Source of the DNA: a virus
Lineage: Duplodnaviria; Heunggongvirae; Uroviricota; Caudoviricetes
DNA: 64,000 bases
Virus record (IMG/VR): IMGVR_UViG_3300043219_000435
Strand: one strand, 5' to 3'
Part shown: piece after piece, positions 3,891-36,698 of the stretch
Numbering within the stretch: position 1 is the first letter of the stretch
Layout: every line of letters starts with the position of its first letter
Position numbers and translations under genes: made by a program
Notes under the pieces: model-generated
The model's database searches: none
The model's input: the letters and a program-made list of their open reading frames with translations, nothing else
What the model was told of the DNA's origin: nothing

Positions 3891-4070
3891 ATGAAAGATA
3901 TTAAGAAAGGTTACTACTGGGTGAAGTTTTACAACCATGATGTTATGCAAGTAATGTTGTTTAATGGCAAGAACTTTGAAGGTTTCAAGAGTGACAACTT
4001 AATACCCGATGAGATAGAGGGTTACGAGTATATTGATTACCCACCAGTGGGCTTGTGTAACGACAACTAA
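3891..4070 (+). CDS. hypothetical small protein (59 aa)
   Basis: ATG preceded by AACTAAAGTAGGTTACG; ends within the motif. Confidence 0.3.
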   Translation: MKDIKKGYYWVKFYNHDVMQVMLFNGKNFEGFKSDNLIPDEIEGYEYIDYPPVGLCNDN

Positions 4071-4210
4071 AGTACTTCCCATGGTTCTATATCTTCTTTT
4101 ACTAATATATCGTACATACGGGTTTTTGGATTATATTTGTATGTAGGACCATATTTTTTAACGGGTTTCGGTCCAACTAAAGTATCGAGGTGTTTAACGA
4201 GTTCTGTCAC
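4067..4210 (-). CDS. mini member of the LDTLV...WEV family (47 aa, GTG start)
   Basis: Translation VTELVKHLDTLVGP...EPWEVL; no ATG, so the start is uncertain. Confidence 0.3.
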   Translation of the reverse strand: MTELVKHLDTLVGPKPVKKYGPTYKYNPKTRMYDILVKEDIEPWEVL

Positions 4211-4216
4211 TTTAGT

Positions 4217-4516
4217 TTACTCAAAATTTATTCTGGTTGATCTATATAAGTGACCATCATTTATGTATTTTTGTATGTTATCCAAACCACATGTATATTG
4301 TTTTGAATAAAACCCAACTCTAGTACCAACATGTCCTTTTAAATACAACAATCTTATAACTTGATCAGACCTATCATAAATCAACAATGCAGCAGATCCA
4401 TTGCTCTTTAGTACATAATAAGCAAGTTCAAGTCGTATATGCTCTATCACTTTAGTTGCTGACATAACTACAGGCTGTATGTTATCTTCATGTTCTTCAT
4501 TAATAATTTGTTTCAT
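4217..4516 (-). CDS. hypothetical protein
   Basis: ORF with RBS GAGGGATAA; CACTTTAGTT lies upstream in sense. Confidence 0.45.
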   Translation of the reverse strand: MKQIINEEHEDNIQPVVMSATKVIEHIRLELAYYVLKSNGSAALLIYDRSDQVIRLLYLKGHVGTRVGFYSKQYTCGLDNIQKYINDGHLYRSTRINFE

Positions 4517-4533
4517 TTATCCCTCTTTTTAAA

Positions 4534-4746
4534 CTAAAGTGTTTTTAACAATTCAATTGCTATAGTATATCCACAATCTGGTTCATGTTCTATTTCGGCC
4601 ATGTTATCTGTAAAACCTTTATCATTAGGTCTTCCATAACACATTGGACAATATGAACCTGCTGTAGATCCATTAGTATCAAAATCAATTACAAGCATAT
4701 CTCTAATAGATTCACACATTGTTTTAATTTGTTCTTCATTAGTCAT
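4534..4746 (-). CDS. small Cys/His protein (CPMCYGRP..DCGY family)
   Basis: Paralog of 3280..3588. Confidence 0.5.
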   Translation of the reverse strand: MTNEEQIKTMCESIRDMLVIDFDTNGSTAGSYCPMCYGRPNDKGFTDNMAEIEHEPDCGYTIAIELLKTL

Positions 4747-5020
4747 ACTTTAGTTTCTCTATTGTAGATGTATAATTACTCAAGGCTTCTTTATTTAAAA
4801 ATACTACGTTAGTTCCGTCATGATATATTTCCAAATTTCGATAATATGTATATAATCCATATTGAGAAACCTTTTTCATATGAACTTTATCACCTTCAAC
4901 CTTTATCTGCTGTAAAGTAATAACAAATACCTTAAGCCTTTGATTATTATCTATATCATCGAAACCATATAATAAATTATCATCCATATCAAATATTAAA
5001 CACTTTTTAACTTCTTTCAT
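4739..5020 (-). CDS. hypothetical protein
   Basis: ORF; TACTTTAGTT plus RBS upstream. Confidence 0.4.
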   Translation of the reverse strand: MKEVKKCLIFDMDDNLLYGFDDIDNNQRLKVFVITLQQIKVEGDKVHMKKVSQYGLYTYYRNLEIYHDGTNVVFLNKEALSNYTSTIEKLKYD

Positions 5021-5052
5021 AATCCTATCTTATATCCATAACTAAAGTATCC

Positions 5053-5277
5053 TTACATATTGTCAATACTGTCTTTTAAATTCATTACAATACTATCAGT
5101 ATACAGTTTTTGTTCGTGCATACGGATTAAATTATGGTTCACCATTTTGTAGAGGATTTCAACATCTTCCTTCATACGTTCTATATGTACTTTTAAACGC
5201 ACTATTTCTTCATCGCCAGTATCTTCATCTAAAACACAGGAGGTTAATAATAGTGAAAATAGTATTACAAATTTCAT
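5053..5277 (-). CDS. small lipoprotein
   Basis: MKFVILFSLLLTSC signal peptide with lipobox. Confidence 0.45.
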   Translation of the reverse strand: MKFVILFSLLLTSCVLDEDTGDEEIVRLKVHIERMKEDVEILYKMVNHNLIRMHEQKLYTDSIVMNLKDSIDNM

Positions 5278-5631
5278 TTAGATTCCAATTATCCGTTTAA
5301 GTATGTCTCTTAAATCAACTAGATCTTGAGCGCAATATTCTCCTTCATCAATCCATTCATCAGACATCATTTCCAGAGCTTCTTTAATTGGGAATTTTTT
5401 ATAATTTCCATCTTCAGCGGTTAATCTTTTAGTGACATTTCCAACTAAAGTGTTTACAATTTTATCTGCAGCATCATCAATGTTTACATTGAATACTTTA
5501 GTTTCAGTTCTTTTTTCTCCACAACAGCAGTTTCCAGGTTCATTGCTATATGGAGAACTACAGTAAGGATTGTGGCATTGATATTTTGAATTTGTCCCTC
5601 TCAGGATATCTTTAATTTTTTCTTTATTCAT
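5278..5631 (-). CDS. Cys-rich protein
   Basis: Internal start MNKEK with a strong RBS GGAGGGAAAT; it overlaps the stop of the upstream gene (ATGAATAA). The longer track ORF 5278..5781 would overlap 5624..5971. Confidence 0.4.
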   Translation of the reverse strand: MNKEKIKDILRGTNSKYQCHNPYCSSPYSNEPGNCCCGEKRTETKVFNVNIDDAADKIVNTLVGNVTKRLTAEDGNYKKFPIKEALEMMSDEWIDEGEYCAQDLVDLRDILKRIIGI

Positions 5632-5971
5632 ATTTCCCTCCACATTCGCTGCAGAATTTATGTGGACATCCTGTTGTATAATCTTCATGCCAATGTTCGT
5701 AATTACAGTAAGGACAATTGTATTTAACATTTCTAAAGCTATCTCTTTCTGTAGTTGTAACAATTCTTTTCTTTGTTTCAACTAAAGTATTCATATGATA
5801 TTTTACTTTAGTTGCGAGTTTTTTGGCGCATTCTCCGCAGAATTCTACACCTTTATCTTCATAGCTCAAACTAAAGTAGTCACCGAATTCATCAGATATA
5901 TCATGTCCACACCATGAACCTACAAGTTCATATTCTTTTTTACATTTTTTACATATTGTCATATTTCCCAA
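5624..5971 (-). CDS. zinc-ribbon-rich protein
   Basis: Multiple CxxC pairs (CKKC, CGEC, CPYC, CSEC). Confidence 0.45.
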   Translation of the reverse strand: MGNMTICKKCKKEYELVGSWCGHDISDEFGDYFSLSYEDKGVEFCGECAKKLATKVKYHMNTLVETKKRIVTTTERDSFRNVKYNCPYCNYEHWHEDYTTGCPHKFCSECGGKYE

Positions 5972-6318
5972 CCTTGATATGTTAAATTGTTATTAGGATA
6001 CAAAATCAGTCTACATTTTTCATCTAAAGACATATAATCTGCACCTATACATTTGAAATCTGCAAATGAAGACATATAATCTGTGCTTCTTTTAAAGATA
6101 GAAATGATATTAACTTGATACATCCATACGGTGGTGTTTTTGTATTTTACAATATATATTACATTTTCATCATGAATATCTCTTTCTATGTGGAATTCTT
6201 CAAAAACTAAAGTGAAGTCATCATTATATTTTGTAGCCACCTCTAATATAACATCATACAATTTTTGATGTAATGGAGATCTTATTCCAACTAAAGTATC
6301 GAGATGTTCTGGTGTCAT
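5959..6318 (-). CDS. LDTLV...GWEV family protein
   Basis: MTPEHLDTLVG...YQGWEI; the track ORF extends to 6330 (MGSE-) using an ATG that lies inside the upstream gene's GWE codons. Confidence 0.55.
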   Translation of the reverse strand: MTPEHLDTLVGIRSPLHQKLYDVILEVATKYNDDFTLVFEEFHIERDIHDENVIYIVKYKNTTVWMYQVNIISIFKRSTDYMSSFADFKCIGADYMSLDEKCRLILYPNNNLTYQGWEI

Positions 6319-6575
6319 TTCACTTCCCAACCTTCGTGTTCATCATGTTTTTTATACAATTTTGTTGTGCGGTCGAATACCTTACATAATATATCTTCTA
6401 AAGTATCAAATGCCTTAAACTCTATTACATATACTACACCAAAAGCATGTAAGGAAACCCAATGTTTTTTGTTATTTAAATATTCTATTACTTTAGTTTT
6501 AGCTACATGGAATTCATATAATATAAACGGATCTATATCAGGCACAACTAAAGTGTCCAGGTGTTCCGGTGTCAT
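6315..6575 (-). CDS. LDTLV...GWEV family protein
   Basis: MTPEHLDTLVVP...HEGWEVK; ATGA stop/start overlap with its neighbours. Confidence 0.55.
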   Translation of the reverse strand: MTPEHLDTLVVPDIDPFILYEFHVAKTKVIEYLNNKKHWVSLHAFGVVYVIEFKAFDTLEDILCKVFDRTTKLYKKHDEHEGWEVK

Positions 6576-6733
6576 TTTACTTCCCATCCATTTTCAATAG
6601 GTCTATAATTAGCTTTGTATTTGATATCTAAATAACGGTTATCAACCGTATAAAATCTACAGTATCTCCCTTCAATTATACAATAGCCATAATTATCAGG
6701 TACAACTAAAGTATCGAGGTGATCGGGTGTCAT
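6572..6733 (-). CDS. LDTLV...GWEV family protein (53 aa, absent from the ORF track)
   Basis: MTPDHLDTLVVPDNYGYCIIEG...ENGWEVK; fills the gap between its neighbours and has the same junction repeat. Confidence 0.5.
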   Translation of the reverse strand: MTPDHLDTLVVPDNYGYCIIEGRYCRFYTVDNRYLDIKYKANYRPIENGWEVK

Positions 6734-6963
6734 TTCACTTCCCATCCAGGATGTTGTATTTCTTCCCGATATTCTTGTACGTAGAACAGTTCTTTAAATT
6801 CTTGTACTGTCATATGGAATGTTTCCCAACCTTTATCATTCCCGAACCATACAGCAAAATAATGTGACCATGGTCCATAGCATGTAATAGTACCTCGATC
6901 CCATTGTTTTATATCAAGATCTGGATGATCTATTTTGCTTATAGCTGTTCCATAATCATTCAT
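6730..6963 (-). CDS. GWEV-C-terminus family protein
   Basis: ...HPGWEVK; sigma70-like TTGACT-N17-TATACT lies immediately upstream of the ATG (leaderless-like). Confidence 0.5.
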   Translation of the reverse strand: MNDYGTAISKIDHPDLDIKQWDRGTITCYGPWSHYFAVWFGNDKGWETFHMTVQEFKELFYVQEYREEIQHPGWEVK

Positions 6964-7034
6964 CTTTAAAGTATAATAAAAATATATAGACGAGTCAATA
7001 AAAAATATGTACTTTAGTTAAAAAGGATTAATAT

Positions 7035-7307
7035 ATGACTGGTGAACAGTTAGATGAATACCATAGAAAGCAGCAAGTTGCTATAGATTTTTGGAAGAAG
7101 CGAGGAGCTACTGACAAAGAGATATTGTGGTTTGAGCGTGGTGCGTGTACTGGAATGCATAATTATCGTAATATGTTATATGAGAATAAACAACAAGATA
7201 ATATTATGGTTGAGATGGAAGCTATGAAAGCAGCTAATAAAGTACGAGAACAGAATAATGAAGCTTTAAAGTATTCAGAAGAGTCATTTATGGATTTGAT
7301 AGAATAA
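7035..7307 (+). CDS. hypothetical protein
   Basis: GTCAATAAAAAATATGTACTTTAGTT promoter-like box followed by RBS AAAAGGA. Confidence 0.45.
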   Translation: MTGEQLDEYHRKQQVAIDFWKKRGATDKEILWFERGACTGMHNYRNMLYENKQQDNIMVEMEAMKAANKVREQNNEALKYSEESFMDLIE

Positions 7308-7312
7308 AAGGA

Positions 7313-7600
7313 TTGAGTATGAAGCAATTAATTGGTTGGGTGATAGGAATTGTTATGTTTTGTGTTGTTATGTTTGTTATGACTTGGTTTATAAACGACC
7401 AGATTGGGTCTGAAGCGCAAGAACGTAAGATTAGAAATCGTGATTACAAGTACCAGGTAACATGTACTGTTAATGGTAAAACTATAACCGAATATTTTTT
7501 GGATTGTTATTCTGGTCAAAGTGGTTTGCGATGTGGTAATAGTCGTGCTACTACATTTTTATGTCAGGGTAATTACAGTTACACAATAGTCCCAAAGTAG
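7313..7600 (+). CDS. membrane protein
   Basis: One N-terminal TM helix; RBS AAGGATTGAGT. Confidence 0.45.
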   Translation: MSMKQLIGWVIGIVMFCVVMFVMTWFINDQIGSEAQERKIRNRDYKYQVTCTVNGKTITEYFLDCYSGQSGLRCGNSRATTFLCQGNYSYTIVPK

Positions 7601-7608
7601 GAGTAAGT

Positions 7609-7818
7609 ATGAAGATAATAATTTTATTAAGTTTAATGGTTATGTCATGTAGTTATGATGTAAAATCGATTAAATGTTATTCTGATGATAAGGTAATATA
7701 CGAGAGTAATAATGTGTATAGTTTGATGTTAAATTCAAACAATCGATATACTATAATAGAGAAAGGTTCTAAAAAACATATAAATGTAAGTGGCAATTGT
7801 ATAGTGGAGCATTATTAA
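7609..7818 (+). CDS. small lipoprotein
   Basis: MKIIILLSLMVMSC lipobox. Confidence 0.45.
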   Translation: MKIIILLSLMVMSCSYDVKSIKCYSDDKVIYESNNVYSLMLNSNNRYTIIEKGSKKHINVSGNCIVEHY

Positions 7819-7819
7819 T

Positions 7820-8083
7820 ATGTCAAAAGATTTAAGGGATTTAAAGTCTTATACGATTGAGTTTGCATCGTGGAATAATGGTGACGATGATAATTTAAGT
7901 ACGAAGTTTATCACATATGATACAGAGGAAGAGGCTTTAGCTGTTTTGAAGCTGTGTCAGGACTGTGATAGTGTGAATGAAATCAGTAAAGAGTTGGATT
8001 TTTTAGAACATGAGAATCCAGATAATTTTTTAGTTGAGTTTTATATTCACCAACGTAAGCAATACATTTGGAAGAAGGAGTAA
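7820..8083 (+). CDS. SW.NDGD...ALA.LKLC family protein
   Basis: Paralog of 8335..8745 (FASWNNGDDDN...EEALAVLKLC). Confidence 0.45.
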   Translation: MSKDLRDLKSYTIEFASWNNGDDDNLSTKFITYDTEEEALAVLKLCQDCDSVNEISKELDFLEHENPDNFLVEFYIHQRKQYIWKKE

Positions 8084-8307
8084 ATATGTCAGAAGTAGAA
8101 GTAGTAAACGTTTGGGTATCGATCTCAGGAGATTATTGTGCATTCCATGAGATGGGTTTTTCAGTAGTATATGACATAACAAATGATATTCAGTTTGATG
8201 ATATGACATTAAAGGAATTGAAAGCTTTCAAAAATGATGGTGATTACTGTGATTATGAGAAGCGTAAAGCATTGAAAGATGGTAAGAATTATTATGTCAA
8301 ATGGTAG
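8068..8307 (+). CDS. hypothetical protein (weakly related GDYC motif)
   Basis: ORF with RBS AGGAGTAAAT. Confidence 0.4.
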   Translation: MEEGVNMSEVEVVNVWVSISGDYCAFHEMGFSVVYDITNDIQFDDMTLKELKAFKNDGDYCDYEKRKALKDGKNYYVKW

Positions 8308-8334
8308 AAGCAACTAAAGTAAAAAGGAATAAAT

Positions 8335-8745: not shown

Positions 8746-8752
8746 CTAAAGT

Positions 8753-8944
8753 ATGAGCGATTGTATTTGTCATAAATGTATAAAAGAGAATAATTTAACG
8801 AATGAAGCTGGTTGGCCGTTAAGTTCTTGTGTAATGATAGTGTGTGACATATGTGGCAATAAACGCTGTCCAAAGGCTTCTGACCATGCTTTAGCTTGTA
8901 CTAATAGCAATGCACCAGGACAGCCAGGAAGTATCTACAGGTAA
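8753..8944 (+). CDS. Cys-rich small protein
   Basis: CICHKC...CDICGNKRCP. Confidence 0.4.
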   Translation: MSDCICHKCIKENNLTNEAGWPLSSCVMIVCDICGNKRCPKASDHALACTNSNAPGQPGSIYR

Positions 8945-8947
8945 CGT

Positions 8948-9145
8948 ATGGATGTAAAATTTAAAGATTTAGAGAATGGTGATATGTTTGAATGTTATGG
9001 TGATATTTTCATTAACTATAATTATTCAAAGATCTGCAGGTGTATTAAGATAGATGAGGATACCGCTCAGGAGATAGATGGTTGTAATTTTCTGGTGGAT
9101 CATAGTGATTATGTATATAAGGTGGATTCAAATGAAAGAATATAA
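8948..9145 (+). CDS. hypothetical protein
   Basis: ORF coupled to the upstream gene. Confidence 0.35.
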   Translation: MDVKFKDLENGDMFECYGDIFINYNYSKICRCIKIDEDTAQEIDGCNFLVDHSDYVYKVDSNERI

Positions 9146-9572
9146 AGTTTTTATGGATTCGAGCATTAAGATTTATACTAAAGAAGAGAATCCTGATATG
9201 ACCTATTATGGGTTTTTAGATTTCTTATATAATGAAGGTTGTAAAAAACCATATTATAGAACTAAAGATACTCAGTTTTATAATTCGATGTATGGTCCAT
9301 ATCATAATTGTTTACGTTTGATGAGATCTAGATATAACCAATCTGGATTTTATCCTGGATGGGACATCCGTGAAGATCGTAGAAAGTTACGTAGGTTGTT
9401 CTTCTATAAATTGGAAGAAGAGGTACAGGCAGCTTTAAATCCGTTAAAATTGGATGATACAATGACGTGGGCAGCTTTAAGTTTGGATCAAGGTGGTTAT
9501 ACATCAATTGATGTTGAATACACTTCACAGACTCTATTTTCAACTGGTAAAGGTTGGGAAATAAATAGTTGA
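9132..9572 (+). CDS. hypothetical protein with a GWEI-type C-terminus
   Basis: MKEYKVF... start with RBS AAGGTGGA; ends ..GKGWEINS. Confidence 0.4.
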   Translation: MKEYKVFMDSSIKIYTKEENPDMTYYGFLDFLYNEGCKKPYYRTKDTQFYNSMYGPYHNCLRLMRSRYNQSGFYPGWDIREDRRKLRRLFFYKLEEEVQAALNPLKLDDTMTWAALSLDQGGYTSIDVEYTSQTLFSTGKGWEINS

Positions 9573-9602
9573 CAAACTGAAGTGATTAATGTACTTTAGT
9601 TG

Positions 9603-10740: not shown

Positions 10741-10959
10741 TTACTTTAGTTTAAATAGTTACTCCGAATAATAATAACATAGAGCATATAAAGATAAGCC
10801 AACAGAAAACAATATACATGTCTGTAATTAAATCTCTTTTATTATCAACATTTTGTTGTATATCGTCTTTAGATTCTACCATTTGGTATCCTTTTTAATT
10901 TAAAGTAAATAAAAATATGGTAATGTCAAACAAAAAAATGTACTTTAGTTGTAAAAGGA

Positions 10960-11304
10960 TTGGCTATGAAAATATTAATTATAATAACATGTATGGTGTT
11001 TGGTTATGCTTTAGCTGATGACACGGAAGATATTACTCTTGTTGAGTTGTGTAAATATGCAGGATATGCACATATGTTAGGTGATGTGCATATATCTAAT
11101 GAGTTGCTACAGCAAGCGTTTACAAAAATACTAGTACCACCATGCGACAGTCTTAAAATTGAAACCCGTAGATGTTGGGATTTGTTTGATACTAGTAAAA
11201 AGATAGGTCTTCCTATTAGTGAACGTGAGTTAATAGGAAAAAAAATAGTCAAACTAAAGTTTATAGATATTCATCCTTCAATTTCCCATCCTTCTTTACA
11301 ATAA
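10960..11304 (+). CDS. secreted hypothetical protein
   Basis: Signal peptide MAMKILIIITCMVFGYALA. Confidence 0.45.
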   Translation: MAMKILIIITCMVFGYALADDTEDITLVELCKYAGYAHMLGDVHISNELLQQAFTKILVPPCDSLKIETRRCWDLFDTSKKIGLPISERELIGKKIVKLKFIDIHPSISHPSLQ

Positions 11305-11621
11305 AAATACCTTGATTGTAATTTATATTCTTGTGCAAATCCAATAAGTTTAATAGTCATTCTAATAAGAATTTCGTCTGGTTCAACTAATTTATAAGTC
11401 GGTACAGTCCTTCTAAATCTTCCTTTATATGTCCGTTTTAGTTTATTACTTTTGATTAGATATTTTCTTATAGAATCCATACTTTCAGGATCAAATGAAA
11501 ATATCAGAGTATTTCCAGTAGTATTTTCAATAATACCAATTAGTTTTTTATATGTGCTATCAAATACTTTAGTTGCTTTTTTATCCGCTACAACTAAAGT
11601 GTCCAGGTATTCATGGTTCAT
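11271..11621 (-). CDS. LDTLV...GWEV family protein
   Basis: MNHEYLDTLVV...KEGWEIEG. Confidence 0.55.
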   Translation of the reverse strand: MNHEYLDTLVVADKKATKVFDSTYKKLIGIIENTTGNTLIFSFDPESMDSIRKYLIKSNKLKRTYKGRFRRTVPTYKLVEPDEILIRMTIKLIGFAQEYKLQSRYFYCKEGWEIEG

Positions 11622-12052
11622 TCAATTTCCCATCCATCACCGGTTGTATGTTGAAGTCTGGTTGTATTTTCACAGATTCTTTGATATAGTAATTTGTCAA
11701 GTTCATCTACTTCTTTGCTTATATCTTCTTTAATATCAAATAATAATAGGTAGGTCGATATCCATTGATTATCTTTATCTGCTAACCATTTTTTATAATT
11801 AGTTACATCAGTTGATTGGTTCATCACTACTTTTTCTTCAGCCATGAGTATCATAGTAATTTTCATGATGTCTTTTTTGAAGTCATCCATGAAGTCGAAT
11901 TTTTGTTTGCCGTATGGATCGTTTAGATAACGAGATGAATCCTGGTTCATTATATTCAAAACAATATATTCTCTACATTTTTCATATTCTTTCTGCTGGT
12001 TGTGTGGTAGAATAACTCCAACTAAAGTATCAAGGTATTTCGGATCGTACAT
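11618..12052 (-). CDS. LDTLV...GWEV family protein
   Basis: MYDPKYLDTLVG...GDGWEIE. Confidence 0.55.
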   Translation of the reverse strand: MYDPKYLDTLVGVILPHNQQKEYEKCREYIVLNIMNQDSSRYLNDPYGKQKFDFMDDFKKDIMKITMILMAEEKVVMNQSTDVTNYKKWLADKDNQWISTYLLLFDIKEDISKEVDELDKLLYQRICENTTRLQHTTGDGWEIE

Positions 12053-12328
12053 TTAATATTCCCATCCTGTTTTAGGGTGAAAGATCATATCAATATAATA
12101 TCCGGCAATGATGCTAAACATTCTCGCTTCAAGATCATATACATCTTTAATACCATGTGAATCTACACTAATTATTTGAAATGATTCCTGACCTTGAAAA
12201 CCGATAAGTGTTTCACCATTTTCATAATGTTCAATTGCTTTAATTCTTTCTTTAAAGAATAGGTCTCTTACTTCAGTTGAGATTGTCGGTTTAACTAAAG
12301 TGTCCAGGTGTTTATAATTCATATTCAA
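12053..12328 (-). CDS. LDTLV...GWEV family protein
   Basis: MNMNYKHLDTLVKP...KTGWEY. Confidence 0.55.
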   Translation of the reverse strand: MNMNYKHLDTLVKPTISTEVRDLFFKERIKAIEHYENGETLIGFQGQESFQIISVDSHGIKDVYDLEARMFSIIAGYYIDMIFHPKTGWEY

Positions 12329-12557
12329 GTTCTTTTTGAGTATATTCTTTTCCGTTTATAACTTGTCTCAGAGTGACTACATCAATTTCATATGCTTTCC
12401 AATCTTCCAGGACGTAGATATAATGTTTAATCACTTTAGTTGATTCTCTGGGAGCCGGTTCGAGCATATCCATTTTATATGCATATGCAGCGTAATAAGA
12501 TCCTTCTATCAATGCAAAGTCACTGAATCTTCTTGATCTAAACAATGGAGCATTCAT
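12312..12557 (-). CDS. hypothetical protein inside the array (carries the motif in another frame)
   Basis: No LDTLV or GWEV; STKV is encoded by ACTAAAGT in a different frame. Confidence 0.4.
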   Translation of the reverse strand: MNAPLFRSRRFSDFALIEGSYYAAYAYKMDMLEPAPRESTKVIKHYIYVLEDWKAYEIDVVTLRQVINGKEYTQKELEYEL

Positions 12558-12709
12558 ATAACCTCCCAGCTACTGCATTTATTAATATAGAGATTTGAAA
12601 CAATTTTATAGACATAATTATGTCTGTCGTTATATGTAGTAAGCTTTGAGAAATCTATAGGCTTCTTTTTCCGAGGCCCAACTAAAGTATCCAGGTATTC
12701 AACAGTCAT
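12554..12709 (-). CDS. LDTLV...WEV family protein (51 aa, absent from the ORF track)
   Basis: MTVEYLDTLVGP...SSWEVI; ATGA overlaps on both sides. Confidence 0.45.
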   Translation of the reverse strand: MTVEYLDTLVGPRKKKPIDFSKLTTYNDRHNYVYKIVSNLYINKCSSWEVI

Positions 12710-13059
12710 ACTTCCCATCCTTCACCTTCACTATAACTACTGCAATGTTCACAATATTTTTTCATTTCTTTAATATGAAGTGGTGAGTCATCGAAATCAA
12801 ATCTTTTTATATGTCGTTTATTTTGCGAAGAGATAAAATGTTCGATTCGTATTCGATACATATTATTAGTATTTGGATGGTTTAAAATGGAATGATCTAT
12901 TAATAGTGTGATTAATACATAATTCAAAAATCCATATGAGCCTTTGAAATATATATTACTATATGTCAATGATTTTATGCCTTCATATATCACTTCAAAT
13001 AATTGATCTGACTTTAGTTTCTCCGGCCCAACTAAAGTATCCAGGTGTTCAACAGTCAT
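12706..13059 (-). CDS. LDTLV...GWEV family protein
   Basis: MTVEHLDTLVGP...GEGWEV; the track version starts at 13068 (MGSM). Confidence 0.55.
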   Translation of the reverse strand: MTVEHLDTLVGPEKLKSDQLFEVIYEGIKSLTYSNIYFKGSYGFLNYVLITLLIDHSILNHPNTNNMYRIRIEHFISSQNKRHIKRFDFDDSPLHIKEMKKYCEHCSSYSEGEGWEV

Positions 13060-13415
13060 ACTTCCCATCCTTCACCTGTTGTATCATTTGGGTCATATTT
13101 GAATGTTACAAGTGATACAATTTCAGTAAGTATTTTTTGATAGTCTTCCATTTTTCCAGATATTATATATCTGGCTAATGTTATTGTAATTCTATCGAAA
13201 TTATAATTGTACAACGGGAATAAGCGAGTATGGTGTATGAATCTTTCGGTTACTCTTCTAGTATCTGGATAAGCTATTTCTTTCATATCTGCAATAGTTT
13301 GATGGACACATATAAGTGCAGCCATATATTGTTCATCAGATATTTTTTTAGTTGTAGTAACTAAAGTGTCAAGATATTTTACTTTATAATTTTTTGTATC
13401 CAAAATTTTCCACAT
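13056..13415 (-). CDS. LDTLV...GWEV family protein
   Basis: ..YKVKYLDTLVTT...GEGWEV. Confidence 0.5.
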   Translation of the reverse strand: MWKILDTKNYKVKYLDTLVTTTKKISDEQYMAALICVHQTIADMKEIAYPDTRRVTERFIHHTRLFPLYNYNFDRITITLARYIISGKMEDYQKILTEIVSLVTFKYDPNDTTGEGWEV

Positions 13416-13423
13416 TTAAATAA

Positions 13424-13535
13424 AGAGTCTGGTAGGATTCTAACCTACAATTTAAGATCCGTTTATCGAGATTTTACCGTCTTTGACAACTTAAAGGAAC
13501 CTGACATCCTGCGATTATCATTTCGCTTCAGACTC
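13424..13535 (-). ncRNA. tRNA-like / Y-RNA-like structured RNA, copy 4 (minus strand)
   Basis: Minus-sense 5' GAGTCTG AA GCGA-AATGATAA-TCGC (clean D-arm) ... T-arm GTAGG-TTAGAAT-CCTAC then CAGACTC at the 3' end. Confidence 0.5.
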
Positions 13536-13639
13536 ATATAGAAAGTATATAAAAAATAAAGTTGAGTCAATAAAAATATAGACCAGTTAATAAAAACATA
13601 TTACTTTAGTTACTACGGATTAATAATTGGAGTATATAA

Positions 13640-14296
13640 ATGATAATGACACGGGATCAGATAAAGAAAGAAATATTAAAATTAAATGGATATGCTTTTA
13701 TATCATTTGAAGCGCAATATGACATATCTAAAAGTATCTTAAAAGCAGGTTCTAAGAAGGCTCAGGCTGCTTTATTGGAAAGTGGTATAGATAGATCTAA
13801 GATGTTCAAACGAGTTGTTACACATGCTCATTTGGCTACTACAAAGCGTGGTTATAATGAGTTTGTAGAGAATGAGTTTAAACGTGCTGGAATACCTACA
13901 GGGTTTAAAGAATGGAAGTCTTCCCAGGTAGAGAAATATGGTAAGACTTACAATGGTACATATGAGCGTATTGATGAGAATAATGCAGCATTGGAGATTG
14001 GTAAGAATGATACTGAGTATTTGGTGATATTTCGTGCTAAGAATTTAGAGACGGATTATTACTATATCGATGAGCAAACTAAAGAAAAACAAAAGATTTC
14101 TTTGGATGATTCCAAGCTTGTTGATTTTCAACCGAAGAGTTCAGTGAAGTATTTAGAGTATACTGAATATGAACAGATGGTGCGAAAGGTTCGTGATCGG
14201 ATTAATATACGTAAACCAAAATTAGATAACATACGATCAATCAACATTCTTGGTAATAATATTGATTTGATTGGTGATCACGGTTGGGAAGTTTAA
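13640..14296 (+). CDS. hypothetical protein with a GWEV C-terminus
   Basis: Ends ..IGDHGWEV; conserved GAGTCAATA..TACTTTAGTT promoter-like box upstream. Confidence 0.45.
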   Translation: MIMTRDQIKKEILKLNGYAFISFEAQYDISKSILKAGSKKAQAALLESGIDRSKMFKRVVTHAHLATTKRGYNEFVENEFKRAGIPTGFKEWKSSQVEKYGKTYNGTYERIDENNAALEIGKNDTEYLVIFRAKNLETDYYYIDEQTKEKQKISLDDSKLVDFQPKSSVKYLEYTEYEQMVRKVRDRINIRKPKLDNIRSINILGNNIDLIGDHGWEV

Positions 14297-16004: not shown

Positions 16005-16637
16005 ATGGATTATGGAAATATAGTAATATTGACGGGTGCAGGAATATCTGCAGAATCTGGAATTCCAACATTCCGTGGTGACGATGGATTGTGGGAAGGT
16101 GAGCCGATTGAAGAAATTGGTACTTCTGAAGGATATAGAAAAGATCCTGAAAGAGTTATTTCTTTTTTAAATGAATTAATAGATAAGTTTGCAGCAAAAC
16201 CAAATGCAGCTCATTACGCTTTAGCTGAAGCGGAAGCTAAAGCAGTATCAAAAGGTTATAAATTTACCTTGATAACTCAGAACATTGATGATTTACATGA
16301 GCAAGCAGGTAGTAAGAATATCTTACATATTCATGGTCAGTTGAACAAAACGGTAATTGATGATAATGGTGAACCAAGACCTGATGTTGTTTTGTTTGGT
16401 GAAAATCCATATCATGTTAAAGAGATTCAGAAGATGATGAAGTTCTGCAGATTGTTTGTATCTATTGGAACATCTGGTGAAGTATTACCGGCAGCATCAT
16501 TTGTTGATTTAGCATTTCGTGGTAGGACTGTAGAACTAAATTTAGAATCTACATGTATCAGTAAACGATTTCAAGAATATTCTTATGGCCCTGCAACTAA
16601 AGTAGTTCCTGAATTTTTCAGCAATATCAATAAATGA
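16005..16637 (+). CDS. Sir2-family NAD-dependent deacylase/ADP-ribosyltransferase (short form without a Zn ribbon)
   Basis: GAGISAESGIPTFRG Rossmann motif; QNIDDLH; HIHG catalytic His. Confidence 0.7.
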   Translation: MDYGNIVILTGAGISAESGIPTFRGDDGLWEGEPIEEIGTSEGYRKDPERVISFLNELIDKFAAKPNAAHYALAEAEAKAVSKGYKFTLITQNIDDLHEQAGSKNILHIHGQLNKTVIDDNGEPRPDVVLFGENPYHVKEIQKMMKFCRLFVSIGTSGEVLPAASFVDLAFRGRTVELNLESTCISKRFQEYSYGPATKVVPEFFSNINK

Positions 16638-16819
16638 CAATTGAGTATTTAGACAGTATTGTATTACCTGAAGAGATTATATATTTAGTTCCATACAACA
16701 TTTATACTATAGAACGATATATAAAATTTCTTAGAAAACAAAATATTTATCAAACGTTTTGGAGTCGTATTACTTTATTTCAAACAGAACAATTTGGTTG
16801 GGAAGTAAATGACAGTTGA
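16634..16819 (+). CDS. LD(S/T)(I/L)V...GWEV family protein
   Basis: MTIEYLDSIVLP...FGWEVNDS; the N-terminus is encoded without the ACTAAAGT motif. Confidence 0.5.
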   Translation: MTIEYLDSIVLPEEIIYLVPYNIYTIERYIKFLRKQNIYQTFWSRITLFQTEQFGWEVNDS

Positions 16820-16994
16820 TTATTTAGACAGTGTTGTATTACCGGAAAAATATTATTATATCGTGCCGTTTCAAGTTAAGTCATTAAGACAATATTTAAA
16901 TTATATGAATAAATATCATAATAGATTGTATAGTGATTATAATAGAATTGTCGTATATCGACCAAAACAAATAGGTTGGGAAGTAAATAGTTGA
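16809..16994 (+). CDS. LD(S/T)(I/L)V...GWEV family protein
   Basis: MTVDYLDSVVLP...IGWEVNS. Confidence 0.5.
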   Translation: MTVDYLDSVVLPEKYYYIVPFQVKSLRQYLNYMNKYHNRLYSDYNRIVVYRPKQIGWEVNS

Positions 16995-19718: not shown

Positions 19719-19886
19719 TTGTTGAATACAACTGAAGTAATTGTTACTTTAGTTGTATTGGTTTATAGCTAAAGCTGTCGGCTATTGTATATTCGTTAAA
19801 AAGGACACACCATAATGTCAGCCTCGCTTTCAAGGCCGAGACATAGGGAAAGCTTCGATGAATATTCATAAATCATACTAGGGAAA

Positions 19887-31053: not shown

Positions 31054-31082
31054 AAAAAAAGGGGGCTTATTATTAAGCCCCC
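31054..31082 (-). terminator. rho-independent terminator (minus strand)
   Basis: GGGGGCTTA..TAAGCCCCC hairpin; T7 on the minus strand. Confidence 0.6.
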
Positions 31083-31121
31083 TACTAAAGTAAATACAAG
31101 TTATTAACTTGTCAATATAAT

Positions 31122-32867: not shown

Positions 32868-32876
32868 GATATCTCC

Positions 32877-33542
32877 CTATTGTTTTTTTAATAATTGATT
32901 ATTGTTTTTTATTGCTTTGAATATATGATTGTTTTTTTCTGTTAAAATTACTTCAGTTCCTTGCTTAAACTCAACATTCTCTTCATCAGGCTCAACCATT
33001 ATATGATGAGTAGTGCCATGATGATCTTGAAATTTTGCCGAAGCCGGATAATTCAACTTTGCTGTACCTAAAGTTATAATAGCAACTTCACCGATAAACG
33101 AATCTTCTGATATTGATTGAGATTCATCATCAGGAATAATTTTATTTAACATGTTTGCACATGTTTTTATTATCGGTACAGAAATTACTATAGCCAGGAT
33201 ACTTGCAATGAATGAAGGAAAAAACTGAAGTAATATGGATTTTGATATTATCTGTATTAAATATCCAGACAAACCAAAAGTTGTTAATGCGAGTATTAAC
33301 AAAATTAGTATTGGTACTTTACCAATACAGAACCAAGTTAATATTCTTGAAAAGAAATCCGGTGTATCAAAATTATCTGGCACATCAGTATCAATATCAA
33401 AATCTGGTAATATTGAATCCAAAAGATTAGAAAATCCGACACCAATTAATAAACCAAAACCTTCCATAAATGATATAGTAATCATTATTCCAATTGCTAC
33501 AGTAAATGGAAGATTCTCGTTTGCTAAAATTAAATCAATCAT
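32877..33542 (-). CDS. NfeD-like membrane protein (flotillin partner)
   Basis: Multi-TM N-terminus plus a C-terminal soluble beta-domain; lies immediately upstream of the flotillin, as in yqiJ-yqiK. Confidence 0.5.
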   Translation of the reverse strand: MIDLILANENLPFTVAIGIMITISFMEGFGLLIGVGFSNLLDSILPDFDIDTDVPDNFDTPDFFSRILTWFCIGKVPILILLILALTTFGLSGYLIQIISKSILLQFFPSFIASILAIVISVPIIKTCANMLNKIIPDDESQSISEDSFIGEVAIITLGTAKLNYPASAKFQDHHGTTHHIMVEPDEENVEFKQGTEVILTEKNNHIFKAIKNNNQLLKKQ

Positions 33543-34201
33543 TACAGATTCTGTTTAAATTTTTGTAAACGAACTTCAATTTTATTTTTTCTTCTTATCT
33601 CTTTAAGTTCCTCGATTTCACGATCTGCTTTCATATCAGTACTTGATTTTGTAAGATCTTTGCCAACAATATTTGTAACAACTCTTTCAAATGCTGCTTC
33701 AGCTTTTGAAATATTATCTTCAATATTATGTTCTTTATCTGTTTGTGAATCAACTAATACTTTAGTTTCTTTTAACAGTGTTAACTCATCTTTCATTTCT
33801 CTAATTTTACTTTCAAGAGCAAGGATGAAATTTTCAAGTTCAATTTTCTTGTTATTGTTTTCTTTTAAAGACGATTCGATGATAGGTAATTGAGTTTCAA
33901 TATCAATTTGTTGAGAAATTACAGATTCTGCATGTTCATCTTTACCTTCATCAACAGCAATTTTGATAAGTTCATTATAGTCGTTGATTTTATTTTCAGC
34001 TTCTATTTTTCTCTTTGATCCTAGATAAAGAGCTGCTTCAATTTTACCAAGTTCAGATTTGATCTCACTCATTGCATCCTGAATTTCTTTTATGGATTGC
34101 TCCATCATAACTTCAGGCATAGAACTTTCTACAATGTTTATTAATTTGTGTGTGCTACCACTAATAATTCTGGTAACTTTTGATGATATACTTTCTTTCA
34201 T
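33542..34201 (-). CDS. pspA: PspA/IM30-family protein
   Basis: N-terminus ..MPEVMMEQSIKEIQDAMSEIKSELGKIEAA aligns with the PspA helix 1-2 region; all coiled coil. Confidence 0.55.
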   Translation of the reverse strand: MKESISSKVTRIISGSTHKLINIVESSMPEVMMEQSIKEIQDAMSEIKSELGKIEAALYLGSKRKIEAENKINDYNELIKIAVDEGKDEHAESVISQQIDIETQLPIIESSLKENNNKKIELENFILALESKIREMKDELTLLKETKVLVDSQTDKEHNIEDNISKAEAAFERVVTNIVGKDLTKSSTDMKADREIEELKEIRRKNKIEVRLQKFKQNL

Positions 34202-34279
34202 TTATTGATCCTTTAATTAAAAGTATTAACTAAAGTAATTCAAATGTATATTGTTGTCAATAAAAAAAATGGATCTAAA

Positions 34280-34312
34280 TAAAAAGAAATCAGCCTTTGC
34301 GGGACTGATTTC
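34280..34312 (-). terminator. rho-independent terminator (minus strand)
   Basis: AAATCAGCC..GGGACTGATTT hairpin with an A-run on the plus side. Confidence 0.45.
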
Positions 34313-34367
34313 TCTTAACATTAAGGAGAAGTCTACTGTAATTGACCTCAATAATAATATACATTAT

Positions 34368-34739
34368 TCATTTTCGATTGTCAACAGCCCATCCTTCAAT
34401 ATCGATCAATTTACGTCTTCTTTCATTAAAGATAGCAATTTGATTATATCCAATTATAAACATTTCTCCTTTCAAGAAAGCAATTTCATTGCTGATATCA
34501 CCAACTATTTTAAAGTTATGTTTATTTCCATCATCAATTAATTTGCCATCACACAGCATTTCTTCTTGTATCATTAATAAAGTATCACCAAAATTAGCTA
34601 TATGCATGTTACTTTCACATTCTAATTCTTTACGCACTACACAAGAAATAGTTTTATAATATGTTTCGATGAAGTCTGTACATTCTTTACTAAGTTTCGG
34701 TCTAACTAAAGTATTAAGATGTTTCACTTTAGTTGGCAT
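34368..34739 (-). CDS. L.TLV...GW.V family protein
   Basis: MPTKVKHLNTLVRP...EGWAVDNRK. Confidence 0.45.
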   Translation of the reverse strand: MPTKVKHLNTLVRPKLSKECTDFIETYYKTISCVVRKELECESNMHIANFGDTLLMIQEEMLCDGKLIDDGNKHNFKIVGDISNEIAFLKGEMFIIGYNQIAIFNERRRKLIDIEGWAVDNRK

Positions 34740-34979
34740 TCATTGTCCGGTTAATAACGATGATATCCATTTAAGGAATAATACAAATGAAGCAAGAATA
34801 AGAAAGACCGTTGCAAAAAATAATACAACAGGCCATATTAATATACATATCATAATAAACGGACCTTCATCTTCTACCTCTATAGCATTTATTCTTCCAA
34901 GAATTCCATAGCCAATTATTCCAATTACAACACCGGCAATCCATATTTTAAAAAGATGTGTATCAATAAATTCTATCAC
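34740..34979 (-). CDS. small membrane protein (GTG start)
   Basis: Two TM helices. Confidence 0.35.
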   Translation of the reverse strand: MIEFIDTHLFKIWIAGVVIGIIGYGILGRINAIEVEDEGPFIMICILIWPVVLFFATVFLILASFVLFLKWISSLLTGQ

Positions 34980-35137
34980 TTTTGTTTATCCATTTCTTCC
35001 AGGTAAAGTTCTTTAGTGAAATCATTCACTCTCTGGCTGAAATTTTTTATGACACCATCGGAACTTCTACCAATACCTTCATGTGCCATGCTATAACATT
35101 TATTCCATACTTCTTGATCTCTTTCATTTTCCATTTA
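34979..35137 (-). CDS. hypothetical small protein (52 aa, absent from the ORF track)
   Basis: MENERDQEVWNKCYSMAHEG...; RBS GGAGTATATAA. Confidence 0.3.
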
Positions 35138-35196
35138 TATACTCCGGTTAATAACTGATATTAACTAAAGTACATATAAAATATTTACATGTCCAT

Positions 35197-35224
35197 AAAA
35201 AAAGCCAGATCTCTCGATCCGGCT
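35197..35224 (-). terminator. rho-independent terminator (minus strand)
   Basis: GCCAGATCTCTCGATCCGGC hairpin followed by T7 on the minus strand. Confidence 0.5.
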
Positions 35225-35291
35225 CAACAATAAATGCACAAGATAATTACCCTGGCTGTATTATAATAAGTAATAATACTTTAGTTGTCAT

Positions 35292-35633
35292 CTAGTTTTT
35301 ATATAATTCACACCATTTGTCAAATTTATAATCTCCAACAAGTCGTTTTATTTGATTGAACATAGTAAATCGTATCATAGTATCTTTTTTGTTAACGAAA
35401 TTCATAACAATATATTTAAAACCATCTTCCATATCACATATTTTTTTAGAATCTCTTAACAGAGAATCAATCAAAAGTTGTACATCTTGTTTTGGTGTAC
35501 TGTATTTTTCTAATAATTTATGGCGAAGCTTCCAGTAATTACGTTCGGATTCCATAGCACTAAATTTGATCTCAGGAGATAACTCTAAATCTACAGGATC
35601 ATTAAAATCTGATTTTGATATTTTACTGTTCAT
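35292..35633 (-). CDS. hypothetical protein
   Basis: ORF. Confidence 0.4.
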   Translation of the reverse strand: MNSKISKSDFNDPVDLELSPEIKFSAMESERNYWKLRHKLLEKYSTPKQDVQLLIDSLLRDSKKICDMEDGFKYIVMNFVNKKDTMIRFTMFNQIKRLVGDYKFDKWCELYKN

Positions 35634-35811
35634 TATATGGCTCCGTTAAATATGCTCGTATATCAGTTTTAATATCTTCATATTCTTCTGACAACGATGA
35701 AAAAGGTATAGGACTTATACTTTCATGGTGCTTTTTAAGAATAGCCATTACACTTCTAACAGCTTTTTCGTCCTCTTCTTTTAATAACTCATTTATTACG
35801 GAATTTTCCAT
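35623..35811 (-). CDS. hypothetical protein
   Basis: ORF. Confidence 0.35.
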   Translation of the reverse strand: MENSVINELLKEEDEKAVRSVMAILKKHHESISPIPFSSLSEEYEDIKTDIRAYLTEPYNEQ

Positions 35812-35861
35812 GTTATCTCACTTTAGTTTTTCAACTAAAGTAAATCAATTAACTAAGTTTG

Positions 35862-36275
35862 TCATCTGATATTTCCACTTAAAGTGCTTACTGCACCTTT
35901 AATATTTTTAGCTTTAACATTACCACTTGTTGTTTTAATATCTCCATCGACATCACCACATTCAATATCACCGCTCGTTGTTGATATGTTACCATGGACA
36001 TCACCCATAACTTCAACATCACCACTCGTTGTAGATAACTTTCCAACATCACCACGAACTTCAATTGATTCACAATAATCAACAGTAAGAGTTAATATCG
36101 ATTTTTCAATAACAATATTAATATTTTTATCGTCGGAATCTACTTTCTTACCATCAATGATAACAGTTCCATTCTTCATAGATAATGAATTGCCATGATA
36201 ACTTTTACCATTTATACTAATGGTTCCTTTATTGTTAATTATTTTTTCTTTTAATTTTTTAAAAAACATATTCAC
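35862..36275 (-). CDS. beta-helix repeat protein, DUF4097/LiaG-like (bactofilin-like is an alternative)
   Basis: Four 14-residue repeats ..STTSGD(V/I)E..GDV.G.I.. Confidence 0.45.
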   Translation of the reverse strand: MNMFFKKLKEKIINNKGTISINGKSYHGNSLSMKNGTVIIDGKKVDSDDKNINIVIEKSILTLTVDYCESIEVRGDVGKLSTTSGDVEVMGDVHGNISTTSGDIECGDVDGDIKTTSGNVKAKNIKGAVSTLSGNIR

Positions 36276-36341
36276 TCCTTTTAATAACTAAAGTAAATAG
36301 AAATTATTGACACGTCTACACATTTTGTATATACTTTCTAT

Positions 36342-36698
36342 ATGAATCCTATTAATTATATAAAACAAAAACTGATGGTTAAGAAGCTCACTACTTTAGT
36401 TTTGCCGACAATTCACACAGAAGATATATTTTATGAGATATGTCAAGGATTGAGAGAGGTTAATAATCCTGGATCTCATTATACCAAACTTAATTTGAAA
36501 ATTGTGAATGAATCAGTTGGTGCAACTATAAGCAATGTGAAAATTTGTTATAATAATATACATTATATTGAAATAAGAAGATATGATATTATGCCAACTC
36601 ATTATTCTTATAATGATCTACAGGATTTGGAAACTTTTTGTGAGAGTATAAGCAGAAGTAATAGAGCTGACAAATATGAAGGATGGGAAGTTGATTAA
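36342..36698 (+). CDS. L.TLV...GWEV family protein
   Basis: ..KKLTTLVLP...YEGWEVD. Confidence 0.45.
   Translation: MNPINYIKQKLMVKKLTTLVLPTIHTEDIFYEICQGLREVNNPGSHYTKLNLKIVNESVGATISNVKICYNNIHYIEIRRYDIMPTHYSYNDLQDLETFCESISRSNRADKYEGWEVD

Follow-up and report, generated by a model that had tools for sequence, protein, structure and literature searches.

A phage family of small proteins with constant ends and variable bodies, and its putative diversification at a junction repeat lying inside reading frames

Background

Among T4-type phages, PeSLs are intergenic repeats made of a promoter and a stem-loop, which populate ORFan-rich hyperplastic regions and are found at the boundaries of indels and replacements (Arbiol et al. 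2010, PMC2839356; Comeau et al. 2014, PMC4122927). The promoter is a strong early one of the sigma-70 type, with 16-18 nt between its -35 and -10 elements, the stem-loop serves as terminator or attenuator, and the cassette stands immediately before ORFan genes. Their copies were proposed to mediate modular shuffling through recombination (PMC2839356, PMC4122927), neighbouring copies giving rise to mini-circles, and this is the closest known system to the one reported here. The present study concerns a stretch of 64,000 nucleotides (hereafter the window) from the virus record IMGVR_UViG_3300043219_000435 (Caudoviricetes), which encodes a set of small proteins with constant termini and variable bodies. 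Many of their genes form head-to-tail arrays in which consecutive genes are joined by a repeat of 45-60 bp, in which the last codons of gene n run through a stop/start overlap into the first codons of gene n+1, and which contains a 9-mer, ACTTYAGTT, that is scattered over the whole window. With some reserve, we favour the view that these are early accessory proteins of a lineage-specific family, diversified by recombination at this dual-coding junction.

The likeness to PeSLs is twofold, since the short repeats of the window also lie in hyperplastic, ORFan-rich regions, and blocks of homology between the window and two related loci (L078 and L240, see below) start or stop at the 9-mer or at the junction. 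Yet, the family junction is situated inside two overlapping coding sequences instead of between genes. It displays neither a correctly spaced promoter (ATGACA, i.e. the start codon plus ACA, is followed after 14 nt by YACTTT) nor a stable stem-loop (eight RNAs folded). Moreover, the invariant core is only 9 bp long and, unlike PeSLs, also occurs within conserved and structural genes on both strands. The initial annotation had compared the arrays to PeSLs; the part of this comparison that concerns shuffling at a repeat was retained, but the family junction is not a PeSL, even if it plausibly works like one. Closer PeSL analogues in this phage are promoter cassettes that carry the 9-mer (see below). 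Shuffling by repeats is itself known, and the novelty here would be junction-repeat cassette shuffling with the repeat inside reading frames.

T4-type phages also carry diverse proteins with capsid-targeting sequences (IPI, IPII, IPIII and relatives; PMC9026906). These likewise associate a short conserved N-peptide with unrelated, rapidly turning-over small proteins in a plastic locus. The family of the window differs from them by the absence of sequence similarity and of a cleavage motif, by the additional conservation of its C-terminus and by its early-looking context.

Repeated motifs of another kind are the stoperators of Cluster A mycobacteriophages and the start-associated sequences of Cluster K, where a short asymmetric motif is present in tens of copies, often over stop or start codons in short gaps, and where one copy class overlaps an early promoter. 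Stoperator-type repressor sites keep one orientation relative to transcription, whereas both orientations of the 9-mer are equally frequent (51 to 50 in genes, 18 to 21 upstream of starts). Its density, at 2.4 per kb, is also well above theirs, some 65% of its copies lie wholly inside genes, and we know of no repressor for it. DNA uptake sequences and Chi sites resemble it in being sharp motifs (here a 9-mer with one tolerated variant), in occurring on both strands and in preferred frames, and in forming inverted pairs between genes. However, they are features of bacterial chromosomes tied to competence or to RecBCD-type enzymes, and no such link was seen for the phage 9-mer.

Family members and their shared termini

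The window was scanned in six frames for [HYKN]L[DNT][TS][LIV]V in combination with [GSP]W[EDA][VIYL] at most 12 residues from the stop codon. Both motifs were found in 14 open reading frames (ORFs) of 47-144 aa (Table 1), the typical termini being [HY]-L-D-x-[LIV]-V-x-P and [GP]-W-E-[VI]. In all 14 members, as in 12 relatives, the N motif was located no further than 6-25 residues from the start, behind a leader of 3 to 15 residues, and the C motif within the last 4-8 residues. Since the sole other match of the N motif in the window was a 38-codon segment that is not a gene (897-1010), the two motifs co-occur almost perfectly, far above chance. Three further ORFs displayed the C motif without the N motif (6730-6963, 9132-9572 and 13640-14296). 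All ORFs of the initial annotation were recovered at their positions and their total of 17 was confirmed, but they divide into 14 with both motifs and three with the C motif only, instead of 15 and two, because 6730-6963 lacks the N motif. With ORFs reaching 144 codons in DNA of 31% G+C, these are real coding genes.

In an alignment of 24 members from the window and one relative (A1), one Leu, the Val and the Trp were invariant, and the Asp, the other Leu and the Glu nearly so; nothing else was conserved. Once the termini were trimmed, no significant similarity was detected between the middles of window members, except for 16634-16819 and 16809-16994, tandem paralogs with 40% identity over their full length. 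The middles had been described as unrelated. This holds within the window, save for the tandem pair, but not across phages: the middle of 5959-6318 is distantly homologous to those of three L078 members (among them L078 5083-5448), and two L078/L240 pairs have detectably homologous middles. The subfamily around 5959-6318 further displayed extra motifs beside both ends (SPxHQKLYDxIL ... LDEKCRxL).

Codons of the termini were tabulated for 26 members from the window and its relatives. The motif Leu was invariant (26/26) and written in five ways (CTG 11, CTT 8, CTC 4, TTA 2, CTA 1), Asp was GAT or GAC, and Pro at +6, found in 20 of the 26, used all four codons. At the other end, Gly was GGA or GGT, or was replaced by Pro (CCA, CCG or CCC), Glu was GAA or GAG, and Val was GTA, GTT or GTG. 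T-L-V was ACT TTA GTT in 22 members; the remaining four (16634, 16809, L078 529 and L078 826) are without the 9-mer and have S, R or A instead of T, but L-D-x-[LIV]-V is kept. Variation confined to third positions therefore points to selection on the peptide. Such selection had already been proposed from the plus-strand pair 16634/16809, which indeed keeps Y-L-D-S-[IV]-V-L-P and G-W-E-V-N while using other codons (TTA GAC AGT ATT/GTT GTA) and no 9-mer, and it is now borne out by synonymous variation throughout the family. The termini are thus under two layers of constraint, at the DNA and at the protein level.

Several individual members deserve mention. The stop codon (TAG) of 4067-4210 sits in a 9-mer copy that also contains the stop of a convergent 59-aa gene. 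The stop of 9132-9572 overlaps the -35 hexamer of a promoter carrying the 9-mer. The 218-aa product of 13640-14296 has two homologs (P0015 and P0016; 65% and 58% identity) on metagenomic contigs (ERR10503114 and SRR29965102); as these have different C-termini without GWEV, the GWEV end (the last ~10 residues) would be a local acquisition. Finally, the product of 34368-34739 differs from that of an allele in a related fragment (L241) at 19 of 123 residues, none of them in the termini, and the dN/dS ratio was 0.54, as compared to 0.23 for the adjoining PspA gene. The ratio and the intact termini indicate a real, faster-evolving gene under purifying selection.

Table 1. Coordinates of family members, related ORFs, junction repeats and associated features in the window.
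Coordinates	Strand	Feature	Detection
4067..4210	-	Family member, 47 aa (..VKHLDTLVGP..EPWEVL-stop)	Motif scan
5959..6318	-	Family member, 119 aa, last gene of array 1	Motif scan
6315..6575	-	Family member, 86 aa, array 1	Motif scan
6572..6733	-	Family member, 53 aa, array 1	Motif scan
6730..6963	-	C-motif-only ORF, 77 aa, first gene of array 1	Motif scan
9132..9572	+	C-motif-only ORF (..GKGWEINS-stop)	Motif scan
11271..11621	-	Family member, 116 aa, last gene of array 2	Motif scan
11618..12052	-	Family member, 144 aa, array 2	Motif scan
12053..12328	-	Family member, 89-91 aa, array 2	Motif scan
12312..12557	-	Non-family ORF, 81 aa, within array 2, internal decayed N-junction (..STKVIKHYIYVLEDW..)	
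12554..12709	-	Family member, 51 aa, array 2	Motif scan
12706..13059	-	Family member, 117 aa, array 2, bracketed by two 60-nt junction copies	Motif scan
13056..13415	-	Family member, 119 aa, first gene of array 2	Motif scan
13640..14296	+	C-motif-only ORF, 218 aa (..DHGWEV-stop)	Motif scan
16634..16819	+	Family member, 61 aa, termini kept without 9-mer	Motif scan
16809..16994	+	Family member, 61 aa, tandem paralog of 16634..16819, without 9-mer	Motif scan
34368..34739	-	Isolated family member, 123 aa (..KHLNTLVRP..EGWAVDNRK-stop)	Motif scan
36342..36698	+	Isolated family member, 118 aa (..KKLTTLVLP..EGWEVD-stop)	Motif scan
6288..6332	-	Junction copy, D2 reference; encodes ..GWEVK-stop, overlapping ATGA, MTPEHLDTLV	
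6545..6589	-	Junction copy, D2, 87% to reference	
6703..6747	-	Junction copy, D2, 91% to reference	
12668..12727	-	Junction repeat, 60 nt, D3 reference	
13018..13077	-	Junction repeat, 60 nt, D3, 93% to 12668..12727	
6970..6998	-	Sigma-70-like promoter, TTGACT-17 nt-TATACT, directly upstream of array 1	Consensus match
13424..13535	-	tRNA-like gene with long insert, between promoter and array 2	Rfam match

The junction repeat

The junction block of the initial annotation was recovered as families of direct repeats, one of 45 nt with six copies displaying 60-100% identity (D2) and one consisting of a 60-nt pair at 93% identity (D3). Array genes are coupled by ATGA stop/start overlaps. In the window version of the junction, GAAGGA is the Shine-Dalgarno sequence and the codons GAA GGA TGG serve doubly. 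Another version is found in the related locus L078, where gene n takes its stop codon from a 9-mer copy that may face either way: E-V-N-stop is written GAA GTA AAC TAA AGT, an end overlapped by the GTG start of gene n+1, and E-V-L-stop is written GAA GTA CTT TAG TT. The full L078-type junction reads CCATGGGAAGTA-AACTAAAGT-G..AACACCTNGAT-ACTTTAGTT-GGGCC. By comparison, the window junction (GGATGGGAAGTRAAATGACACC..) looks like a derivative of it, with a decayed first 9-mer and with GAAGGA as Shine-Dalgarno sequence. No match to the junction pattern GGATGGGAAGTRAAATGACACC was retrieved from IMG/VR. Since the 9-mer supplies stop codons in the relatives, the family ends make use of a motif that punctuates the whole genome and delimits homology blocks across the region, beyond the arrays.

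Folding of eight junction RNAs was no better than that of shuffled sequences (z-scores from -0.8 to +1.0) and revealed no conserved structure, so that a translational hairpin was discarded as an explanation of the repeat. Decayed junctions were found inside two ORFs. One of them is 6730-6963 (DKGWETFHMTVQEF; GWETFHMTVQEF), which probably corresponds to two fused cassettes, and the other is 12312-12557; both therefore point to fusion events. Besides, a zinc-ribbon-like ORF of 115 aa (5624-5971, minus strand) contains an internal inverted pair of 9-mers, read as ..ATKVKYHMNTLVETKK.., which is like a family junction embedded in frame and may represent another fusion.

The 9-mer ACTTYAGTT

The sequence ACTTTAGTT was present in 121 copies over the 64 kb, counting both strands, where 1.6 would be expected. 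Its only common variant was ACTTCAGTT (34 copies), all other single-mismatch variants being limited to 0-4 copies each. Taken together, the motif ACTTYAGTT amounts to 155 copies, or 2.4 per kb, with a density that declines from 4.1 per kb (1-8 kb) to 0.6 per kb (56-64 kb). Copies are intergenic as well as intragenic (e.g. 142-150 and 2172-2180; four in the DNA ligase gene): 101 of the 155 lie wholly inside called genes and 54 do not. Intragenic copies comprise 51 in sense and 50 in antisense orientation, and the corresponding numbers within 30 nt upstream of starts are 18 and 21. They are mostly read as T-L/S-V or T-K/E-V, and 40 of the 51 sense copies are in frame 0. Some copies provide stop codons at gene ends (AAC TAA AGT; A CTT TAG TT).

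Close 9-mer pairs were inverted in 20 of 24 cases, a number reached in only 6 of 5000 orientation shuffles. Likewise, an inverted partner of 9 bp was found for 11 of the 24 N-terminal 9-mers, with A+U-rich stems and loops of 10-35 nt. A single perfect 18-bp palindrome (AACTAAAGTACTTTAGTT) was noted at 38759-38776, together with inverted pairs of the form AACTGAAGT-N(1-9)-ACTTTAGTT (9575-9601, 19730-19754 and 48493-48511), two of which lie between the -35 and -10 elements of promoter-like sites. A putative lipoprotein gene (925-1542, plus strand) contains four copies within a short internal repeat (..VINDTVTVFDTLVVNDT..VRDTLVEF..); here, the 9-mer is accommodated as D-T-L-V in an unrelated protein.

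In some 12-20 cases, the 9-mer coincides with the -10 region (T-ACTTT) of a sigma-70-like promoter, a TTGACA-type hexamer being located 17 nt upstream; a -35 element matching at 5 or more of 6 positions at a distance of 16-18 nt was found for 12 of the 155 copies, none of which is a family junction. A role as a pure sigma-70 -10 element consequently holds for those ~12-20 copies only. The resemblance to the T3/T7 core ACTAAAG also raised the possibility of a phage RNA polymerase promoter, which was rejected because the orientation of the 9-mer is independent of gene direction. The resemblance to E. coli TerB (..GTTGTAACTAAAGT) was taken as coincidence, as the flanks mismatch. A literature search on the 9-mer retrieved nothing relevant.

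A 54-nt promoter cassette carrying the 9-mer (D5) is repeated at 6980-7033, 10911-10964 and 13572-13625, upstream of three plus-strand genes. It reads AAATATATAGAC..AATAAAAAATATG-TACTTTAGTT-AAAAAGGATTAATA, displays no obvious stem-loop and provides the closer PeSL analogues mentioned above. Between 4000 and 17500 (13.5 kb), in spite of many convergent gene pairs, a single intrinsic-terminator-like site was detected (4.7 +/- 2.4 in shuffled sequences), and gene ends in this region are marked by the 9-mer instead of terminators.

Relatives and mosaic breakpoints

A search of IMG/VR for inverted 9-mer pairs retrieved one related contig of 212 kb, IMGVR_UViG_3300037245_001419, which comprises loci L078, L139 and L088. 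In L078, the 9-mer is the top k-mer (3.4 per kb). L078 and L139 together encode 11 family members, whose ends are again of the types ..KHLDTLVGP.. and ..(E)PWEV(N/L)-stop, one of them (L139 693-1004) ending in PWGVN, and they include a head-to-tail array of seven genes. Additional relatives are L240 (JGI 3300043218), an array fragment of 1.3 kb; L096, from the same sample as L240 and with the same top k-mer; and L241, an allele of window positions 33524-34824 (95.8% identical). In the more distant L290, 12 copies of the motif occur inside tail and structural genes. Loci L076, L119 and L125 were set aside as 9-mer-enriched candidates because they carry other repeats.

Flanking genes are similar in the window and the 212-kb contig (a gene encoding a 352-aa TPR protein, 90% nucleotide identity and dS 0.20; the 59-aa gene, 94% and dS 0.36). 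Despite this, no orthologous array content was found between the window and L078/L139. Two small genes separate the TPR gene from the 59-aa gene in the window, as against ~4.3 kb including the seven-member array in L078, and the slot beside the 59-aa gene is occupied by the 47-aa member in the window and by an unrelated 105-aa member in L078. Homology blocks 2172-3259 and 3873-4084 start and end exactly at copies of AACTAAAGT. The second one extends through the PWEVL codons common to the convergent family members and then breaks.

A comparable situation was encountered between L240 and L078 for one array gene (gene C), with 98.9% nucleotide identity over 378 nt, extending into the next junction. 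Upstream of it lies a 62-aa zinc-ribbon-like ORF in L078, whereas L240 displays a homolog (34%, trimmed middle) of L078 7759-8076, a gene located 3 kb away in L078. Identity breaks inside the junction, just 5' of the codons of the N motif, and the leaders differ accordingly (MNIKYLDTLVKP.. against MVDLIKHLDTLVKP.., i.e. MNIKY.. against MVDLIKH..). The cassette shuffling proposed in the initial annotation is supported by these comparisons, as relatives differ in array content (identical arrays had been named as the observation that would speak against shuffling) and breaks fall at the junction or the 9-mer.

Homology and structure searches

No match to the family was obtained, at curated cut-offs or E < 0.005, in Pfam, PHROGs, NCBIfam, PADLOC or the sequences of the PDB, and profile searches of 5.8e9 clustered proteins and 1.84e9 representatives matched this lineage only. 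Scans with DNA patterns of IMG/VR, JGI metagenomes and GTDB genomes retrieved no family outside the lineage; in metagenome and genome collections, the DNA pattern of the N motif gave single chance matches and no 9-mer-enriched locus. Loci of IMG/VR around homologs of the Sir2, EF-Ts and DNA ligase genes displayed neither the 9-mer nor the family. On the basis of these sequence searches, we regard the family as new and as restricted to one small lineage of phages.

AlphaFold2 was run on 5959-6318 with the family alignment (pLDDT 50) and on 11618-12049 as a single sequence (pLDDT 48). The two low-confidence models differ, one being mixed alpha/beta and the other all-helical. In that of 5959-6318, the N motif is weakly helical and the C motif is coil. 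Termini were unpaired in both, which lends no support to the two-strand clamp envisaged initially and, at such confidence, does not refute it either.

Origin and role of the constant ends

Recombination at the junctions would shuffle cassettes because the junctions are the only sequence common to otherwise unrelated cassettes. It would exchange, delete, duplicate or fuse them, within a genome or between co-infecting relatives, and result in rapid turnover of array content with constant ends. The route could be homologous over the 45-60 bp of a junction, which is long enough for phage recombination, or microhomology-mediated at a bare 9-mer. Such events would account for the replacement, gain and loss of cassettes, for fused ORFs with decayed internal junctions, for the GWEV end on an unrelated protein and for the changed leader of an otherwise identical gene. 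From these patterns we infer that junction recombination is the cause of the turnover. The arrays would be transcribed head to tail from sigma-70-type promoters, and presumably early in infection. As the peptide ends are under protein-level selection, they probably constitute a common module, for handling or for binding a partner, on variable bodies.

Alternatively, the termini could be nothing but the in-frame footprint of the 9-mer, its inverted partner, the Shine-Dalgarno sequence and the stop/start overlap, with gene conversion homogenising the copies. We consider this purely DNA-level constraint unlikely, in spite of a series of observations that agree with it: T-L-V, when present, is always ACT TTA GTT (22/26); intragenic 9-mers are read as the same few tripeptides in any protein, genome-wide; GAA GGA TGG doubles as Shine-Dalgarno sequence in the window, and L078 stop codons come from the 9-mer; inverted partners of N-terminal 9-mers fall in different frames; close pairs are largely inverted; and junction copies reach 93-100% DNA identity. 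However, a footprint does not explain why third positions vary while amino acids stay fixed at L, D, P, G/P, E and V, nor why the four members without the 9-mer (two in the window, two in L078) keep L-D-x-[LIV]-V-x-P. Similarly, 4067, 11271, 34368 and 36342 keep [GP]WE[VI] with no downstream family gene in need of a Shine-Dalgarno sequence, L078-type ends (CCA TGG) lack AAGGA, and the junction RNAs have no conserved stable fold that could be maintained. If the peptides are selected as such, they might be a targeting or processing signal, the N-peptide, perhaps with the C-peptide, sending its payloads to a common destination such as the prohead, for injection along with the DNA, with or without proteolytic removal. 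The form fits, with a conserved N-peptide of ~10 residues on unrelated, fast-evolving small proteins at a hyperplastic locus, and capsid targeting in T4 requires no more than the first 10 residues of IPIII, while Alt has propeptides at both ends (PMC9026906). Still, we hold this to be improbable, given that the family displays no similarity to the T4 capsid-targeting sequence and that the alignment contains neither the L/I-x-E motif of the T4 prohead protease nor another conserved cleavage motif ([HY]LD is preceded by E, K or D, and position -3 is variable). The variable leader length (3 to 15 residues) also argues against it, as does, weakly, the location of the arrays behind sigma-70-type promoters, among early-looking ORFans and far from any structural gene of the window.

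The ends could also be remnants of one ancestral fold, in which case the members would be diverged paralogs whose first and last elements pair as a structural core, junction recombination being incidental. Homologous middles across phages and in the tandem pair 16634/16809, as well as the additional motifs beside both ends in the 5959-6318 subfamily, go in this direction. Little probability is nevertheless given to it, since lengths range over 47-144 aa without detectable similarity between window middles, predicted secondary structures differ and leave the termini unpaired (both models being of low confidence), and a GWEV end is carried by an unrelated protein of 218 aa but not by the homologs of that protein. 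A last possibility, which we judge to be remote, retains recombination and assigns it to a dedicated machinery: ACTTYAGTT would be the site of a phage recombination or nicking activity and the early region an exchange platform of the integron or shufflon type. The site would have been absorbed into the reading frame, and bodies would be swapped in frame between fixed N- and C-peptides in a 'Golden-Gate-like' manner. Precise block ends and a sharp motif are compatible with a dedicated site, but microhomology gives the same pattern, and we know of no enzyme for recombination at ACTTYAGTT.

Diversification of an early accessory family by junction recombination thus remains the favoured view, and a number of points weigh against it. 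Nine bp are too short for classical homologous recombination, and a dedicated enzyme may be involved. Related material amounts to only three genomes or fragments, with junction recombination deduced from mosaic boundaries, and, with a 9-mer at most boundaries between genes, some coincidence between block ends and the motif is to be expected anyway. The promoters were recognised by consensus only, and a generic scan showed no enrichment, with 90 found where shuffled sequences predict 84. The variable bodies are probably accessory host-takeover or anti-defence proteins, a role proposed solely by analogy with phage hyperplastic regions. Finally, all family and structure searches of known libraries were negative, and structure prediction (pLDDT 48-50) offers no account of the terminal peptides.

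If correct, this reading would provide a clear natural case of one repeat acting as recombination junction, translational-coupling signal and shared coding termini. Protein bodies would be exchangeable in frame while a constant N/C module is kept, and the PeSL idea of shuffling points would be extended from intergenic DNA into coding sequence. In practical terms, ~14 members here and at least 13 in relatives form a set of variable proteins for host-takeover or anti-defence screens, and the conserved termini could be used as a handle to fish for a common partner. The sharpness and density of the 9-mer are unusual for a phage and merit a study of their own.

Promoters and tRNA-like genes

The -10 element (TATACT) of the array 1 promoter ends 6 nt before the ATG of 6730-6963, a gap which suggests a (nearly) leaderless first cistron or a mis-assigned start. 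Array 2 is preceded by a similar TTGACT-type promoter (~13545-13575), followed by a tRNA-like gene and then by the array. Three other tRNA-like Rfam matches were found on the minus strand (60637-60716, 60887-61030 and 61251-61406). The four matches measure 80-156 nt and cover model positions 1-71 (7-64 for the 80-nt match); they would thus be tRNA-like genes with long inserts, which are possibly introns, and none of the four was called by ARAGORN. The same genome encodes RtcB (41816-42919), a CCA-adding-type enzyme (53593-54528), a Ro-like protein (61835-63517) and a Tpt1-type 2'-phosphotransferase (in L001, see below).

Source phage and neighbouring genes

The source JGI contig (131,247 bp, ~31% G+C) belongs to an uncultivated large phage. 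No near-identical DNA match to the window was found among 50,697 GenBank phage records, and in protein searches the matches were limited to individual genes with remote relatives. Over 17.6 kb that cover the two large arrays, the window is 100% identical to an SRA assembly made independently (L001), which shows that its sequence is not an assembly artefact. Window genes include those for NAD-dependent DNA ligase, RtcB, a CCA-adding-type nucleotidyltransferase, a Ro-like RNA-binding protein, Sir2, PTH2, EF-Ts and PspA. The window is otherwise crowded with small ORFans, the region being hyperplastic. Two of these small ORFs, 3280-3588 (plus strand) and 4534-4746 (minus strand), are paralogous and form a second small family of the hyperplastic region, without Pfam match, with the common pattern ..D(V/F)DT(Y/N)GS(E/T)AGS(F/Y)CPMCYGRP(D/N)DKGF.DN...I.HE.DCGY.IAIELL...

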